A stretch of DNA of 13,134 bases from a virus (taxonomy: Duplodnaviria; Heunggongvirae; Uroviricota; Caudoviricetes). Below the pieces are notes generated by a model. That model was given only the letters and a program-made list of their open reading frames with translations, had not been told where the DNA came from and did not search any database. A program made the position numbers and the translations under genes. The stretch is taken from IMG/VR virus record IMGVR_UViG_2681813271_000010. One strand, written 5' to 3'. Shown here in pieces: positions 1 to 3,911 of the stretch. Positions within the stretch are counted from its first letter, which is position 1; every line of letters begins with the position of its first letter.

Positions 1-405
1 TAGCTGGTCACATGCGCCTTTGATATCGCCCTGGTTTATTTTGCGAAGAAGCGTCGATGTTCTGAAATTGCCAGCGCCCACGTTGTAAACGAACGAGTAA
101 AGAGCGCCGCGCGTTGTTTCCGGTATATCGACTTTGATGTACGGGTTAATTTGTCTGGCGACAGTGGCAAGGTCTTTATTCAGGAGGGCTTTGCATTCTG
201 CTTCGGTATACGTTTTACCGAGCATGATGTCTTTTCCGGTGTGTCCGTGACATACAGTCCATACACCAATGATATCTTTGTATGGTATGTAGCTGACACC
301 TTCCAGACCATCGTTACCACCTGGGCCAGTGATTAACACAGATGCTATAGCAACAGCCCCGCCACCAATAGCAACTGCAACAGCCTTGCGTAATGATGGC
401 GACAT
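1..405 (-). CDS. R: SAR-type endolysin (phage 21 R-like lysozyme); C-terminal end lies outside the window
   Basis: Minus-strand ATG at 405-403 overlaps the holin stop (TAATG). Translation [57 protein letters not shown]... shows a Gly/Ala-rich hydrophobic N-terminus followed by E-x8-D-x5-T spacing typical of T4-lysozyme-fold endolysins. Frame is open to position 1. Confidence 0.85.
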
Positions 406-620
406 TATTCACCTCTCGCAGCCTTACGCTTGTCTTCTCTTATTTTGAAATACAGATTTGTCAGATAAGTCAGAAGCCCCAGAAGCAGACTTCCCAGCAC
501 ACCAATCGCAGCCCACTGTGATGGACTGACCTGATCCAACCACTGCAAAAACCAGTAGCCGGCACTGCCGGCGGAGGTGCCGTAGGCAATGCCTGTTGAT
601 ATTTTTTCCATCTGATACAT
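405..620 (-). CDS. S: class II holin / pinholin (phage 21 S-like), dual-start motif
   Basis: 71-aa frame [71 protein letters not shown]: two hydrophobic segments and a charged C-terminus. Met1 and Met4 fit the holin/antiholin dual-start pattern. A G-rich tract precedes the ATG on the coding strand. The listed ORF 405-749 is only a read-through of the N-run. Confidence 0.85.
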
Positions 621-680
621 ATCCCGCCCCCCCCCCNNNNNNNNNNNNNNNNNNNNNNNNNNCAGACCTGTGCTATCGGA

Positions 681-714
681 AAGAAAAAAGGCCATCAGCA
701 AAACTCTGATGGCC
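681..714 (-). terminator. intrinsic terminator-like hairpin upstream of holin (tR'-like position)
   Basis: Stem GGCCATCAG (690-698) / CTGATGGCC (706-714) with a 7-nt loop; on the minus strand it is followed by a T-rich run (complement of A-run 681-689). Confidence 0.45.
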
Positions 715-1328
715 TGAATCACCTTTACCAATATTGTATGAAAAAACACGCACGACTAATTGACAATAATTTTCATTTCCATTAAAAAAGATCGCGTAGC
801 ATTCTTAATTCATGAGGAACTTTACCCGCCAGCAATCTGAGTAGCGAAAGCTGTTCATCCCCAATGTTTTTGCTGGCGGGTCCTTTTTTCTACGGTCCTC
901 CTCCCCGGAGGGGGGCATTTCATTATTTTTCTAATCGTTACTGGTGAGAAGGCGGAAGAAAAAGCCAGTTCTTCGCCCCTAAATAACAGCATGATTCCAG
1001 TCCATGCAAAATCTGATTTCCAGCTCACACATACCGAGCACTGTACAAAAAACCGCCAGCCAAGGCAGTTAAGAGTGTGTTCCCGGGGTTTGCTTAGAAT
1101 ATTTTGTAAGTTGTCCGAAGAGATATTTACAACACCAGAATGATGAATCATCAGTCCCCTGCCAGAGGTTCACTACGTAACCTGACCGACAATGCACCAT
1201 TCTGGTGCTGAAAAAAGAGCACTGGAACTGCAACAAAACAACATCACAGAACAGGAGATGGTAAGGAGTCAGACATTCCCACACAATATTGTGTCAGTGC
1301 AAATAACAACCTTCGTCTCAAATCTCGC

Positions 1329-1403
<75 letters not shown>

Positions 1404-1406
1404 ATA

Positions 1407-1482
<76 letters not shown>

Positions 1483-1484
1483 GC

Positions 1485-1561
1485 TGGCCCACCACCGAGG
1501 ACTCGAACCTCGCACCGTCAACTTAGAAGGTTGATGCTCTATCCGGATGAGCTAGTGGTGG
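1485..1561 (-). tRNA. tRNA-Arg (anticodon UCU, reads AGA)
   Basis: Minus-strand CCACCACTAGCTCATCCGGATAGAGCATCAACCTTCTAAGTTGACGGTGCGAGGTTCGAGTCCTCGGTGGTGGGCCA: acceptor CCACCAC/GTGGTGG (unusual C1-G72), D-stem GCTC/GAGC, anticodon stem TCAAC/GTTGA, loop CTTCTAA, CCA encoded. Confidence 0.8.
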
Positions 1562-1562
1562 T

Positions 1563-1639
1563 TGGTGGCCCTTGCTGGACTTGAACCAGCGACCTGGCGA
1601 TTATGAGTCGCTCGCTCTGACCAACTGAGCTAAAGGGCC
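1563..1639 (-). tRNA. tRNA with CAU anticodon, Ile2 (lysidine-type, ileX/ileZ-like) rather than Met
   Basis: Minus-strand GGCCCTTTAGCTCAGTTGGTCAGAGCGAGCGACTCATAATCGCCAGGTCGCTGGTTCAAGTCCAGCAAGGGCCACCA: acceptor with C4 and C5, anticodon loop CTCATAA, T-stem GCTGG/CCAGC. Closely resembles the E. coli ileX-type tRNA as I recall it. Confidence 0.8.
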
Positions 1640-1727
1640 GGAGGCAGAATAATAACCATATGTCATCACATCTGCAAACTCATCTGACCACCAGCACGTT
1701 TAACGTCCTGTGCCGTTTTTCAGGTAT

Positions 1728-1750
1728 AAAAAAACCCGCTCATCGGCGGG
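1728..1750 (-). terminator. intrinsic terminator (minus strand) between Q-like gene and tRNA cluster
   Basis: Stem CCCGC (1735-1739) / GCGGG (1746-1750) with 6-nt loop; A7 on plus (1728-1734) gives a U7 tail on the minus-strand transcript. Confidence 0.5.
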
Positions 1751-1846
1751 TTTAAGCTGTGTGGCGTAGTAACCACTCTTAACAGGATATTCAACTTTTT
1801 ACGATCNNNNNNNNNNNNNNNNNNNNNNNNNNNNNNNTTCAGGTAT

Positions 1847-1868
1847 AAAAAAACCCGCATAAAGCGGG
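1847..1868 (-). terminator. second intrinsic terminator (minus strand), near-copy of the 1728-1750 element
   Basis: Stem CCCGC (1854-1858) / GCGGG (1864-1868); A7 on plus (1847-1853) gives a U7 tail on minus. Shares the upstream TTCAGGTAT-A7-CCCGC context with the first terminator; a 31-N run (1807-1837) lies between them. Confidence 0.5.
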
Positions 1869-1947
1869 CTCTTTCAAATGTCCATGTCTGCTATTCGCCT
1901 CGCGGTACAGCTTTGCGAAGCGTACAAGAATTGAAGCAGTTTTTACG

Positions 1948-2502
1948 TCAAAAAGCAATAACTTTTTTCTCTATACCAAAAGCCATAACCATTGGTTTGT
2001 ACAAAATAAATTCTGCCACCTTTAGCCAATGCTCAATGCGTCTTTCACAGGTTCTTAAACTCCATTTCGGGTGTGCATCATTCAGCAGTTCAGCCATTTT
2101 GCGTTTGGTCATCCCCCGCCCCTCATACCGTTGCCGAAGGACGCTAATCAATCCTGGATGCTCTGCCAGCACCTCACTTATGACCCGATCAATACATAAC
2201 GCCTCTGCATCAGTACAATGCGCCAGCCAGCTCTTTTGCTTACCGTTAATCATATCCCGCAAAAAAGCCTCAAGTTCAGACTTGTTCAGACCTGCTTTTT
2301 TCATCCTCCGGAGCGCCTCGTTAATTGCCGTTTTTGTCAGCTTTTTAGAGGTCAACATCAGGTTAAACATATTCCCCGTCTTACCGCCACCAATATACGA
2401 CCAGCGCCCCCACATACGTAGTTTTCCCTGAATCCAGACACTTTCCAGCGTGGTGAGACGAAGGTGTTCTCCGCTTTTTCCTGTATTCGTTGGGTAAATC
2501 AT
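1948..2502 (-). CDS. putative late-gene antiterminator (Q-like, 184 aa); function assigned mainly by position
   Basis: ATG at 2502-2500 preceded by AAGGAGGG Shine-Dalgarno; ATGA overlap with the upstream gene in the intact copy at 5789-5792. Sits immediately upstream of two terminators, the tRNA cluster and the lysis cassette, which is the Q position in lambdoid phages. Family not recognised with certainty. Confidence 0.55.
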   Translation of the reverse strand: MIYPTNTGKSGEHLRLTTLESVWIQGKLRMWGRWSYIGGGKTGNMFNLMLTSKKLTKTAINEALRRMKKAGLNKSELEAFLRDMINGKQKSWLAHCTDAEALCIDRVISEVLAEHPGLISVLRQRYEGRGMTKRKMAELLNDAHPKWSLRTCERRIEHWLKVAEFILYKPMVMAFGIEKKVIAF

Positions 2503-2547
2503 AAATATCCCTCCTTTCTCCAGATTTCTTGTGTGCGAAAAACACCT
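2267..2547. repeat. 281-bp segment identical to 5557-5837, ending at an 11-N run
   Basis: Direct comparison of 2267-2547 with 5557-5837 shows an identical sequence (5' portion of the Q-like gene plus the last codons of the DUF1364-like gene). Copy 1 ends at the N-run 2548-2558; copy 2 begins right after the N-run 5546-5556. Confidence 0.85.
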
Positions 2548-2558
2548 NNNNNNNNNNN

Positions 2559-3008
2559 CGTGAACTCAACCTGACCGTGTTTATCGAAGTGGCTCAGTAA
2601 TGCGCATCCATCATTTTCGATAGATGTGTTTTGTGCCGCTGGTGGCTGTTTCTGGTTGAAATAACAGTCTTCCAGTTTTTCGAACACTTCCCACGCCTGA
2701 TCGGTTTCGAGCATTTTGGCGTGACGGGCTGCGCCACGTTCTGTCCAGAGGATGAGGGAGCGAACGTTACGGGCAATTTTCACAGAAACTCTTAAAGAGT
2801 TTTCGTTCTTCAACTCTCGTAACGCATCACCTTCTATCAGGAAAAAATGTTTACCTTCTATAAACCGTTCTTTGTTTCGATTGAAATTGTTTGTCAAACG
2901 CTGGCGCTCTGTTCCGTACAAATCAGCCAGCAGCTCTGTTGTCATGACAGGAAGATGGTTATGCGTAAGTGACGGGAGTTTTTCAATAGACGTGCGATTC
3001 ATAGACAT
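2559..3008 (-). CDS. ORF6N/antirepressor-like phage protein, 3' end truncated at N-run
   Basis: ATG at 3008-3006 with AAAGGA 6 nt upstream. Translation MSMNRTSIEKLPSLTHNHLPVMTTELLADLYGTERQRLTNNFNRNKERFIEGKHFFLIEGDALRELK... resembles ORF6N-domain antirepressor-type proteins (recalled, not searched). The frame runs into the N-run at 2548-2558, so the C-terminus is not visible. Confidence 0.5.
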
Positions 3009-3145
3009 GTCCTTTCGAATATTTTGATTTACCCCTTTTGAGAGGGTGACCGGGCGCTCAAAACCGTCGAAAGTCGGCGGGCGTATTTCCATTGCTGGTA
3101 TTGTATTAGCCGCACACCCGGTCATAAACCAAGAATTCTGGACAC

Positions 3146-3173
3146 AAAAAAACCACATGGCTATCGGGTGTGG
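3146..3173 (-). terminator. intrinsic terminator downstream of the Q (82/21-type) promoter region, tR'-like
   Basis: Minus-strand CCACACCCGATAGCCATGTGG followed by T7 (complement of A-run at 3146-3152). Confidence 0.5.
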
Positions 3174-3208
3174 ATACCGCTTTCGAGGTGTTTTGAGCAC
3201 CGCGGGGA

Positions 3209-3314
3209 AATGTAAACTGCAAACCTGAAACTGTCAACACCGTCAGGTTCCAATCCCGACGCCAGATTTTGCTGGCGCGTGAGGAATATAGCCCCGGACA
3301 ATGTGTCTGGTCAA
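3209..3314 (-). promoter_or_regulatory. two tandem sigma70-like promoters immediately downstream of Q (pR'-like)
   Basis: Minus strand: TTGACC (3314-3309), 18-bp spacer, TATATT (3290-3285); and TTGACA (3238-3233), 18-bp spacer, TACATT (3214-3209). Both fire toward the terminator at 3146-3173. Confidence 0.4.
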
Positions 3315-3318
3315 GCAC

Positions 3319-3911
3319 CTACATAATTCGTTCTACGTATCTGTCCATCTCCAGCCGGATATCAAGCATCATCAACATGCCATCAATAACCCNNNNNNNN
3401 NNNNNNNNNNNNNNNNNNNNNNNNNNNNNNNNNNNNNNNNNNNNNNNNNNNNNNNNNNNNNNNNNNNNNNNNNNNNNNNNNNNNNNNNNNNNNNNNNNNN
3501 NNNNNNNNNNNNNNNNNNNNNNNNNNNNNNNNNNNNNNNNNNNNNNNNNNNNNNNNNNNNNNNNNNNNNNNNNNNNNNNNNNNNNNNNNNNNNNNNNNNN
3601 NNNNNNNNNNNNNNNNNNNTGCCAATACAGGTATCCGAACACCCATGTTTCCGTGCCAGACTCATAAAAGTCATTCCACCTACGTAATAATCCACCAGCA
3701 AATCGTGCAAATCCTGATTTTTCTTGTTCAACCGGGCCATACAGCCACAAATTATCATTGCATCATCATCAGAACACTGAGGGCGTGATTTCACTTTCGA
3801 CGGAATTAACCCTTTAAAACCAGCAGCGATCGACGCCCAGGATACATCTTCATGAGTGTTTGCAGCCCAAGCCCCCCACCGTTCCATAACCTGCTGAATA
3901 TCACGCGCCAT
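3319..3911 (-). CDS. Q: antitermination protein Q (phage 82/21/933W type), interrupted by a 227-N run
   Basis: ATG at 3911-3909 overlapping the rusA-fragment stop (ATGGCGCGTGA). N-terminal [97 protein letters not shown]; after the N-run (3393-3619), in another frame, ...[23 protein letters not shown] then stop at 3321-3319. Both halves match the Q82/Q21 family as I recall it. Confidence 0.7.

Follow-up and report, generated by a model that had tools for sequence, protein, structure and literature searches.

The stretch of DNA analyzed here (the window; 13,134 nucleotides of the Caudoviricetes record IMGVR_UViG_2681813271_000010 in IMG/VR) includes a late region with the gene order Q, tR', tRNAs, the interval 621–1328, holin and lysozyme (Table 1). 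The initial annotation had drawn attention to this interval as a cargo position between the tRNAs and the holin with no credible ORF, and both statements hold. The hairpins, the palindrome and the TTGACA box that it listed also exist, each no more than a few bases from its given position. The ORFs of at least 30 aa, at 855–1151 (minus, 98 aa), 1069–1284 (minus, 71 aa), 991–1143 (plus, 50 aa), 1192–1377 (plus, 61 aa, overlapping tRNA-Gly) and 805–918 (minus, 37 aa), have zero matches to Pfam and PHROGs at E<0.2, span the mosaic joints described below, and have their frames disrupted by indels of 1–2 nt in homologues; a 63-aa "hypothetical protein" annotated in a relative runs through a terminator hairpin. 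Lacking Pfam or PHROGs support for its ORFs, a protein-coding region was rejected. A run of 26 N at 637–662 was overlooked in the initial annotation, and relatives have no additional sequence there. The prophage as a whole appears degraded, containing runs of N as well as repeats related to IS elements, and relatives are found in Shigella; E. coli CFSAN029787 and S. flexneri are examples of carriers, the region being identical in S. flexneri.

Rather than random filler, 621–1328 is a mosaic of three modules: an RNA that trails the tRNAs, a candidate sRNA on the opposite strand, and a terminator close to the holin. Recombination joints lie near 680, 1030 and 1124. Of 5426 complete E. coli genomes, about 1430 contain the holin-linked part, 680–1029 (module A), at about 85–88% identity; its carriers include APEC O18, IHE3034, Nissle 1917 and hosts of ColV plasmids. 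The part 1124–1328, found in 339 genomes, is linked to tRNA-Gly in the SerU-LTIIb prophage. A 16-mer seed run against species-representative genomes gave matches outside Escherichia/Shigella of which nearly all are at chance level. The sole Rfam match over 621–1328, the miRNA MIR1515 (20 bits, E=0.96), is at chance level. Full-text literature queries with the hairpin sequences returned unrelated papers only, and a literature search on Shigella sRNAs near the holin found nothing relevant.

Table 1. Features of the interval 621–1328 and its flanks, by position in the window
Feature	Position	Strand	Details
Holin	405–620	minus	start codon 620–618
Holin-proximal intrinsic terminator (module 3)	683–715	minus	late strand; stem 715–689, 10 pairs; U6 688–683; −17.3 kcal/mol, z = −3.15
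Promoter-like TTGACA (760–765), 17 bp, TAAAAA (783–788)	760–823	plus	region's best plus-strand promoter score
Candidate sRNA (module 2)	~795 to 889	plus	promoter-like box and branched terminator hairpin
Branched terminator hairpin of candidate sRNA U3	824–890	plus	−34.2 kcal/mol, z = −3.97
Second plus-strand hairpin	895–916, T-rich tail to 930	plus	9 pairs
Recombination joint, tRNA-linked module/holin-linked module A	1030–1044	none	homology to L002, L007 and L008 stops at 1029
tRNA trailer RNA (module 1)	1328 to 1045	minus	~280 nt, 3' of tRNA-Gly
Trailer 3' tail	1045–1125	minus	short; ends in degenerate intrinsic terminator (terminator scan)
Tail terminator	stem 1070–1051, U6 1050–1045	minus	7 pairs; weak, z = −1.8
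Long irregular hairpin	1126–1214	minus	~35 bp; MFE −40.4 kcal/mol
Conserved U-run CUUUUUUC	1210–1217	minus	directly 3' of P1; columns nearly invariant in 44-variant alignment
tRNA-like cloverleaf	1219–1300	minus	MFE fold of window copy
Cloverleaf closing stem P1	1300–1295 with 1224–1219	minus	
Cloverleaf hairpin H1	1294–1281	minus	palindrome of the initial annotation
Cloverleaf middle hairpin	1280–1253	minus	conserved loop motif CUCCUUACC
Cloverleaf hairpin H2	1249–1228	minus	
tRNA array Met(CAT), Arg(TCT), Thr(TGT), Gly(TCC)	1329–1639	minus	ARAGORN; Rfam tRNA 56–70 bits
Promoter-like TTTGCA-18-TATTAT	1649–1678	minus	consensus scan; 9 nt upstream of tRNA-Met, downstream of tR'-like terminator
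Q	1948–2502	minus	

The promoter-like element at 1678–1649 is likely the tRNA unit's own promoter, and an equivalent layout (TTGCAA-17-TATTAT) stands upstream of the diverged tRNA arrays in the relatives L138 and L006. What follows the array is, to judge from covariation among relatives, a conserved structured RNA, encoded 3' of tRNA-Gly on the late-operon strand. The family is defined here by a place on that strand 3' of a tRNA, and the window copy has the family's closing stem GCACUG/CAGUGC, its two to three internal hairpins, the U-run and the ~35-bp hairpin. The identical four-helix shape of the cloverleaf recurs in 5 distinct sequences of one subfamily, with compensatory changes in hairpins H1 and H2. 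Neither ARAGORN nor Rfam recognizes 1219–1300 as a tRNA, and its loops are of 4, 13 and 6 nt, as against the 7-nt anticodon loop and T-loop expected of one; the modeled likeness to a tRNA is limited to the four-helix topology only. A covariance model of the cloverleaf was dropped because the MAFFT alignment of the two structural subfamilies was unreliable. H1 coincides with the perfect 14-bp palindrome ACACAATATTGTGT that had been singled out earlier at 1281–1294. The palindrome is present, but since by our own estimate chance alone would place about 0.8 perfect palindromes of 14 bp in a sequence of 13 kb, it is insignificant alone and derives its meaning from the covariation. Pairing of the anti-Shine–Dalgarno-like loop CUCCUUACC within the window was also considered and rejected, as matches are no more frequent than expected by chance. 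The U-run at 1210–1217 doubles as the 5' base of the long hairpin, and may serve as a first, leaky terminator.

Covariation in the trailer RNA is strong. In an alignment of 44 sequence variants, for which RNAalifold predicts a structure of 49 pairs, pairing is intact at 97.5% of the predicted positions when every sequence is counted, as against 31–57% with slid partners; in 12 pairs both partners have changed, and none of 500 shuffles gives values as high as those observed. For helix 4, the long hairpin, which encloses a variable inner hairpin (AGGUU/AACCU in the window), the figure over all sequences is 98.7%, with compensatory changes at alignment columns 184/252, 186/250 and 203–205/222–224. 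The first alignment seed lay inside the 3' arm of the long hairpin, which fixed those columns; adding a second, independent seed, which removes this bias partly, gives 46 variants with 97.7% of positions paired against 33–58% in slid controls, some variants then carrying A–C mismatches. Pairing is strand-specific because of its G–U pairs, only 78% of positions being paired on the opposite strand. Moreover, the compensatory changes span lineages that are only 60–79% identical. Of the 49 consensus pairs, 41 form in the window copy and 8 are broken, so that this particular copy may be decaying.

The minus-strand hairpin with T6 that the initial annotation placed at 1046–1067 does exist, at 1070–1051, though it is weak, and it is a weakened version of the homologous terminators (CCGCC-loop-GGCGG-U7–8) found in L138, L206 and the long lineages. 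In the long lineages the slot equivalent to 1045–1125 holds a divergent STnc100-like body, which includes the motif CGGGAGGCACCCG and scores 21–27 bits over the full length of the Rfam model RF02076; in prophage L002 this slot, adjoining module A, is occupied by a true STnc100 scoring 114 bits. For comparison, PasD2 scores 41 bits against this model. In the window itself STnc100 has no match in 1–3000 at E≤1, and none at or above the gathering score (47 bits) anywhere. By position, the unit running from 1137 to 1045 on the minus strand does lie where STnc100/PasD would be expected, downstream of the Q/PR' cargo and ending at the terminator 1070–1051. The sense-strand unit of the window has the appearance of a longer STnc100-like unit that has been shortened.

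The trailer could, however, act in cis only, no trans-acting RNA being made: the cloverleaf would then represent a degenerate tRNA pseudogene, with the long hairpin as a signal for processing by RNase III/RNase E and for stability, serving tRNA-Gly maturation or the late mRNA. In most lineages the element does follow the 3' end of a tRNA, and the cloverleaf has a tRNA-like topology. Moreover, an irregular duplex of 35 bp is the type of substrate that RNase III cuts, and the species I RNA of the phage T4 tRNA cluster, cut by RNase III, is a precedent. On the other hand, some lineages have the element without an adjoining tRNA-Gly end, the conservation of single-stranded loop motifs, CUCCUUACC among them, exceeds the needs of pairing, and relatives join the element to an sRNA-like STnc100 body. 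We regard a purely cis-acting trailer as the less probable reading.

On the plus strand, the TTGACA box at 760–765 is present as originally noted, and both the hexamer and the 17-bp spacing are kept in four lineages. The hexamer by itself is insignificant, and the −10 element TAAAAA lacks the near-universal final T. The segment 760–823 also includes, 3' of the promoter-like box, the variable 5' part of the candidate sRNA, whose start would lie near 795, giving a predicted length of about 95 nt. The unit, U3, would end at the branched hairpin, reported initially as a terminator-like hairpin at 825–889 and here refined to a hairpin of 58 nt (824–881) followed by CC and T6/U6 (884–889). Its outer stem of 12 bp pairs ACCCGCCAGCAA (824–835) with TTGCTGGCGGGT (870–881); within lie an 8-bp inner hairpin with a GAAA loop and the conserved internal loop UCAUCCCCAAUGUUUUU. 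Because of its G–U pairs, the inner hairpin forms on the plus strand only, and the minus-strand fold of the branched hairpin has a z-score of −2.54 as against −3.97 on the plus strand. Among four lineages the hairpin diverges by 3–8%, while its flanks diverge by 13–22% and the sequence around it by 13–39%; it is the most conserved stretch of module A, and its loops are as conserved as its stems. Compensatory changes are not seen in the plus-strand unit because the lineages are too few. The second hairpin proposed on this strand (896–930) is real, but its conservation is not: it diverges by 27–39%, with the stems broken in the three other lineages, and may be a back-up terminator in this lineage only. 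The plus-strand unit is found in about one-quarter of complete E. coli genomes, including hundreds of ColV virulence plasmids and pap-linked islands, on both of which it has outlived the surrounding phage genes.

The conservation of the branched hairpin, together with the slot and orientation of PapR, PasA/PasC and AsxR, makes it reasonable to regard the plus-strand unit as a candidate antisense-oriented sRNA, by analogy with the validated sRNAs that share its slot; it has a U6 terminator and a conserved −35 box, with a weak −10. It is convergent with the minus-strand unit, whose end lies at 1045, and about 160 nt separate the two 3' ends. An alternative is that the hairpin at 824–889 is a terminator with no sRNA gene attached, shielding the tRNA/Q region from antisense transcription that comes from the lysis cassette or from beyond it (for example, from morons of the bor/iss type), and ending iss transcripts on ColV plasmids. 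In agreement with this, iss lies upstream on the same strand in L002 and on ColV plasmids, the −10 element is poor and the hairpin shows no covariation. A mere terminator, however, accounts poorly for a perfect −35 box at a fixed 17-bp spacing in four lineages, for loops conserved as strongly as stems, and for three validated sRNA families in the same slot and orientation, and we think it the less probable explanation, while keeping it in serious consideration. The suggestion in the initial annotation of a small antisense or regulatory RNA gains comparative support, but the weighting changes: the best-supported RNA has the sense of the late operon and comes from the minus strand directly 3' of tRNA-Gly, where only a palindrome and a hairpin with T6 had been noted.

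Also overlooked initially was the terminator at 715–689, about 70 nt upstream of the holin start, which is stronger than any other in the region. It recurs in many prophages, has 0 of 34 differences between the two prophage lineages and has decayed (5–7 of 34 differences) in relic copies that lack the holin. Kindred terminators, with compensated changes in their stems, precede class II holins in four other relatives (L213, L215, L272 and L010). This recurrence suggests a safety lock that protects the lysis genes against read-through from cargo promoters.

That the whole region is a functionless recombination scar, its hairpins left over from the terminators of lost cargo genes and conserved through recency alone, seems improbable. 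The clear mosaic joints, the lineage-specific second hairpin, the seemingly truncated sense-strand unit (relative to the long lineages) and the proximity of relic copies to IS elements would all be expected of a scar. The covariation, however, already disfavors this reading, with compensatory changes across such divergent lineages, and divergence within module A is uneven. Moreover, no remnants of stx, csp or the porin gene nmpC were detected in the region. A remnant of an IpeX/nmpC or cold-shock cargo was also rejected by comparison with K-12, since neither DLP12 nor Qin has similarity to 621–1328. Of the earlier idea of a lost-cargo scar, then, the recombination mosaic and the shortened STnc100-like unit stand, and the stx, csp or porin remnants do not. 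Conservation among related prophages, the absence of which would have spoken against a regulatory element, is clear. Finally, that the inverted repeats act as DNA, as protein-binding palindromes or recombination sites, is highly unlikely despite the perfect palindromes ACACAATATTGTGT in the window and ATGATGCATCAT in relatives, because the pairing is strand-specific and because the stems change sequence yet stay paired, which would not preserve a protein site.

We favor, with a probability of roughly 0.6, a reading in which the apparently empty cargo slot is a cluster of non-coding RNA and terminator elements that would work as follows. In the lysogen, transcripts from PR' would halt at tR', and the tRNA unit would be transcribed from its own promoter (1678–1649), the transcript running on into the trailer as a 3' external transcribed spacer. 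Processing and stability would be signaled by the cloverleaf and the long hairpin, as tRNA-like punctuation recognized by RNase P, Z or E, through RNase III cutting the long hairpin, or both, and the product would be a stable trailer RNA, which in relatives would carry an sRNA of the STnc100/PasD type. Three successive minus-strand stops, P1 with its U-run, 1070–1051 and 715–689, would silence the holin; the terminators probably keep the lysis genes silent before induction. For the plus-strand unit (~795 to 889), this reading predicts an sRNA of the Hfq type on the model of PapR, PasA or AsxR, its 3' module conserved and its 5' end variable. Upon induction, Q-modified polymerase would pass all the minus-strand terminators and reach the lysis genes.

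AsxR, AgvB, PapR, the Pas sRNAs and STnc100, all found at this site, rewire host regulation and virulence, and each new family in the slot is therefore a candidate regulator. The tRNA-linked structured RNA, which about 6% of complete E. coli genomes contain and which is also present in Shigella, combines strong covariation support with no match to an Rfam family. More tentatively, since we hold this to be less probable than the cluster of elements as such, the trailer element may represent an undescribed RNA family of lambdoid prophages that uses tRNA mimicry as "punctuation", next to a fourth, new sequence family of antisense sRNAs in the PapR/PasA/AsxR slot. Under tRNA mimicry, tRNA-processing enzymes and RNase III would excise an STnc100-type or short RNA from a constitutive tRNA operon, and the stacked terminators would simultaneously insulate the lysis genes. 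If so, the interval from Q to the holin would be a general modular launch pad for the regulatory RNAs of prophages; if none of the elements is expressed, the region is still a useful map of late-region recombination joints.

The non-coding tail of a stable-RNA operon is a known source of small RNAs. In E. coli, the 3' external transcribed spacer of a tRNA operon, 3'ETS-leuZ, acts as an RNA, and the tRNA cluster of phage T4 yields the stable species 1 and 2 RNAs. The trailer RNA shares with these, and with the sRNAs of rRNA operons, its place in such a tail, an intrinsic terminator and a presumed release by processing. In rRNA operons, sRNA genes are reported to sit between the dual terminators (PMC8144298). 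Compared with 3'ETS-leuZ, to which it has no sequence relation, the trailer RNA is of much greater length and has more structure, and its function as a sponge or regulator would be putative. STnc100/PasD/EcOnc13 occupies the same slot and strand as the sense-strand unit of the window, which keeps only the first ~20 nt and the terminator of an STnc100-like unit; conversely, the Rfam STnc100 model does not include the upstream cloverleaf and long hairpin of the trailer element.

For the plus-strand unit, the closest parallels are PapR of UPEC and PasA/PasC of EPEC, which are Hfq-dependent. As in the window, their genes have the cargo or STnc100 on one side and a class II holin on the other, with transcription directed against the late operon. 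In NU14, PapR is flanked by the tRNA/STnc100 units and the holin and runs antisense to the late operon; PasA and PasC are likewise antisense just upstream of the holin (PMC8550237, table S6). These loci also share with the window a TTGACA-type box about 140–190 nt from the holin start, a conserved terminator stem region, and a late-strand terminator between the sRNA promoter and the holin. In contrast, the plus-strand terminator of the window is branched, with 38 nt between the stem arms. The likeness is not one of sequence. Homology to PasA/PasC of E2348/69 was rejected, the local alignment score being 27 as against 24.9 ± 3.2 for shuffles, and so was PasB, which sits among phage structural genes. 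The pap-linked relic copies prompted the idea that module A is PapR itself, which was rejected because the published primers give a different sequence: in a comparison by eye, with PapR read from these primers and from the NU14 locus, the 5' (CGGGCTGAAGTCCGG...) and 3' (...CCCAGCGCGGGCTTTTTTT) sequences of UTI89 PapR are absent from the window. A PapR-like 3' end is found in L002 and NU14, outside the part shared with the window, the homology of L002 to the window stopping earlier. The DLP12 site of UTI89 was discarded as the wrong locus for PapR.

With Rfam at E≤1, neither AsxR nor AgvB (RF02703 and RF02702) is matched in the window, nor is either matched in module A of L002 or L007; Esr41 is likewise unmatched. 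AsxR and AgvB measure 51–60 nt with a conserved 3' region of 42 nt, whereas about 95 nt is predicted for the plus-strand unit; in position the window does agree with them, the unit at ~795–889 being antisense to the PR' transcript and convergent with the sense unit. In lambdoid prophages, convergent sRNA pairs downstream of PR' were described by Tree et al. (2014; PMC4104026), one being EcOnc27 with AsxR/EcOnc02. Like the elements of the window, these moron-site pairs follow the Q/PR' cargo, precede the next conserved late gene, and consist of an RNA in the sense of the late operon and a convergent, opposing RNA, both with intrinsic terminators. The window differs in having a tRNA array as cargo, in the ~160 nt between the 3' ends and in that its sRNAs are predicted. 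In its layout, a sense RNA and an opposing convergent one with a terminator ahead of the lysis cassette, the interval conforms to these known moron-site pairs, with sequence families that are new.

The region between the tRNA genes and the holin gene (621-1328) is non-coding, yet it is not empty. It belongs to the late region of a lambdoid prophage, which is encoded on the minus strand of the window. The initial annotation had seen no credible ORF here, and no Pfam or PHROGs match was found for the ORFs of 37-98 aa that are present, which cross recombination joints and whose frames are disrupted by small indels in homologues. The features it named are all found in the sequence: a plus-strand hairpin with the outer stem ACCCGCCAGCAA/TTGCTGGCGGGT (824-835 with 870-881), followed by CC and T6; a second plus-strand hairpin, at 895-916; a minus-strand hairpin with T6, at 1070-1051; and, correctly placed, a palindrome at 1281-1294 and a TTGACA box at 760-765. 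By our estimate, chance alone would yield a 14-bp palindrome or a TTGACA hexamer in 13 kb, and these two features thus draw weight only from comparisons with relatives. The strongest terminator of the region, on the minus strand close to the holin, had been overlooked.

Features of the region under study and its surroundings, in late-operon order
Feature	Position	Strand	Remarks
Q antiterminator gene	1948-2502	-	first in late-operon direction
Two tR'-like terminators	1753-1732 and about 1875-1845	-	downstream of Q
Promoter-like TTTGCA-18-TATTAT	1649-1678	-	9 nt upstream of tRNA-Met, downstream of tR'
tRNA genes Met, Arg, Thr, Gly (n=4)	1639-1329	-	
tRNA-Gly-linked segment	1124-1328		79% identity to post-tRNA-Gly sequence of LT-IIb prophage SerU
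Trailer, predicted cloverleaf	1300-1219	-	
Trailer, U-run	1217-1210	-	
Trailer, predicted long hairpin	1214-1126	-	-40.4 kcal/mol
Module A	about 680-1029		85-88% identity in about 1430/5426 complete E. coli genomes
Stx1d-shared segment	663-777		also between stxB1d and holin in Stx1d prophage
Putative terminator	stem 715-689	-	10 pairs, then U6; ~70 nt before holin start
Class II holin, then lysozyme	holin 620-405	-	after the region under study

Nine complete E. coli genomes have an identical copy of 663-1328, with no annotation inside it. The same stretch turns up in many IMG/VR prophage contigs and, two copies per genome, in the species representatives of S. flexneri and E. coli. Two copies of 663-1194, ~750 bp apart in some genomes, are present in the IMG/VR contigs L019 and L021, where one copy ends at 1194 and is followed by a second lysozyme/holin segment, indicating tandem or rearranged late regions. 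In a poly-C tract immediately upstream of the holin the window has 26 consecutive N (637-662), at a place where relatives have no additional bases. One relative has an insertion of ~1.4 kb at this point, and another one of ~1.3 kb between the lysozyme and holin genes (L037 1803-3260; L030 3195-4525); the N-run/poly-C site may be an insertion hot spot. Elsewhere in the window, two Rfam models reach the gathering score: sok antitoxin RNA (117 bits; 7404-7579, minus strand), which implies a hok/sok module, and sRNA-Xcc1 (77 bits; 3040-3123, minus strand), within ORF 2499-3200.

Its sequence relationships mark the region as a mosaic. Module A, the holin-linked part, immediately precedes the class II holin gene in APEC-type prophages (L002), and relics of it adjoin iss on 574 ColV-type plasmids (e.g. 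L007 3876-4344) and are also found near pap islands (L008/L009), as in the chromosomal island of Nissle 1917. The relic copies are without lysis genes; they start at window position ~680 and border on the end of an IS200 element (STnc490/art200 match, 90.8 bits). They preserve an intact plus-strand hairpin, while their holin-proximal terminator has decayed. Relatives of the tRNA-Gly-linked segment were found in 339 complete genomes. The recombination joints are consistent with the earlier proposal that the region is the scar of a lost cargo gene; against it, the analysis detected no trace there of stx, cold-shock or nmpC genes.

The tRNA-Gly-linked segment would specify, on the minus strand, a trailer RNA that sequence comparison supports well as a conserved structure and that appears to be undescribed so far. 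Its relatives, gathered with a 20-nt seed from 1124-1328, comprise ~50 distinct variants; outside the window's own lineage, their identity to it is 60-79%. In the 49-pair structure that RNAalifold predicts for an alignment of 44 variants, a 7-bp closing stem (GCACUG/CAGUGC) is followed by a U-run; the other elements are two internal hairpins, H1 and H2, and a long, irregular one of ~35 bp. The window copy forms 41 of the 49 pairs. H1 corresponds to the palindrome, and its stem is CGUA/UACG or CACAU/AUGUG in other lineages. Standard pairs occupy 97.5% of the predicted pair positions over all sequences of the alignment; sliding the partners by 1-3 columns lowers this to 31-57%. Changes on both sides affect 12 pairs, against 4-7 in the controls, and none of 500 shuffles reached the observed values. 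The first seed lay in the 3' arm of the long hairpin, fixing that arm; when the collection was repeated with a 5'-arm seed, 46 hairpin variants were 97.7% paired (33-58% in controls), now with a few A-C mismatches. With its many G-U pairs, the structure would reach only 78% pairing on the opposite strand, which argues that the RNA is read in the late-operon direction. Five distinct sequences of the window's cloverleaf subfamily, folded singly, all give the same four-helix cloverleaf, whose middle hairpin (GGAUGU/ACAUCC, GGGCG/CGCCC etc.) presents a conserved loop motif, CUCCUUACC; neither ARAGORN nor the Rfam models recognized the element. Relatives of 1126-1145 (minus strand; e.g. L133, L225) have a small hairpin, GGUGUU-GUAAAU-AACACC, with a compensated variant GAUG..CAUC. 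It and the long hairpin, whose 3' base it overlaps, are mutually exclusive, and it may represent an alternative pairing or a switch.

In all lineages the trailer unit is closed by an intrinsic terminator, CCGCC-loop-GGCGG-U7-8, of which the window has a weakened version (CUGCC-UUGGCU-GGCGG-U6, 1070-1045). In "long" lineages ~200 nt separate the long hairpin from this terminator, and the stretch, which includes the motif CGGGAGGCACCCG, weakly matches the whole STnc100 model (RF02076; 21-27 bits). In the window and in the L138 type of relative the corresponding stretch is short, about 85 nt, and does not match that model. At the other end, the promoter-like site before tRNA-Met has a counterpart, TTGCAA-17-TATTAT, in the same layout upstream of the diverged tRNA arrays of L138 and L006, which suggests that the tRNAs and the trailer form a transcription unit with its own promoter.

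Both tR'-like modules downstream of Q (1720-1760 and 1838-1875) start with the 21-mer TTCAGGTATAAAAAAACCCGC and are separated by an N run (1807-1837); L019 and L095 have a single module. The additional module (1730-1803) has 89% identity with a K-12 DLP12 sequence ~120 nt upstream of essD. Over the PR'-tR' leader, at 1848-1921 and 1726-1799 (minus strand), the Rfam models of isrK (19.9 bits) and of Trp_leader (23-25 bits) show weak similarities, which are probably due to a short terminated transcript from PR' (6S-like or StxS-like) rather than to membership in either family. The holin-proximal terminator is identical between two prophage lineages and has 5-7 changes in relics without a holin. 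Terminators related to it are found 30-70 nt ahead of the class II holins of E2348/69 PP2 and PP6, NU14, the Stx1d prophage and others; among them, one stem position is changed on both sides (GCCAUCAG/CUGAUGGC vs GCCGUCAG/CUGGCGGC). In the lysogen, this terminator would likely keep transcripts started at cargo or tRNA promoters from running on into the lysis genes, and Q-modified polymerase would read through it.

On the plus strand, four lineages of module A were compared (window type, APEC prophage type, ColV plasmids and pap-island relics), too few for covariation. Divergence is 3-8% in the hairpin region (824-886, including the start of the T-run) against 13-22% in the flanks. The branched hairpin (824-881; -34.2 kcal/mol, z = -3.97) has loops conserved as much as its stems; its inner 8-bp hairpin with G-U pairs forms on the plus strand only, and the T-run that follows is likewise confined to that strand. 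The second hairpin diverges by 27-39% and is therefore lineage-specific. All four lineages preserve a perfect TTGACA at a distance of 17 bp from TAAAAA; this is the best promoter-like site on the strand, although its -10 does not have the usual final T. The predicted transcript (about 795 to 889) would measure ~95 nt, its 3' module conserved and its 5' part variable. Of the small RNA suggested in the initial annotation, the well-supported form is the trailer on the minus strand, and a plus-strand sRNA is a plausible candidate.

In EHEC prophages, the moron site, which lies downstream of PR', is known to house convergent sRNA pairs (Tree et al., PMC4104026). PasA and PasC, validated as Hfq-dependent sRNAs (Pearl Mizrahi et al., PMC8550237, table S6), are located just upstream of the holin in the E2348/69 genome and are transcribed against the late operon; PasD, related to STnc100 by a 2026 preprint, lies further upstream in the sense direction. 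PapR, an Hfq-dependent UPEC sRNA (PMC4546395), lies in NU14 between tRNA/STnc100 units and the holin, also against the late operon, and in L002 a PapR-like 3' end is convergent with STnc100, which places PapR in the same convergent-pair slot. PapR or a PapR-like 3' end is found between tRNA or methylase genes and the holin of a lambdoid prophage at L002 4368-4700 and L272 (NU14) 2500-3430; NU14 has two STnc100-like copies. The plus-strand unit of the window shares slot, orientation and design with these sRNAs, but not sequence: aligned locally with the PasA and PasC loci, it scores within the range of shuffled sequences, PapR sequences are absent from the window, and AsxR, AgvB and Esr41 (Rfam) do not match it. 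On the sense strand of L002, the equivalent position, which directly precedes module A, is taken by a true STnc100 (114 bits), and the window unit would thus be a different, shortened sequence in the STnc100/PasD slot. The convergent-RNA layout at the moron site is of the type already known, and the sequence families of the RNA elements that occupy it here, whose expression, processing and function we infer, are new.
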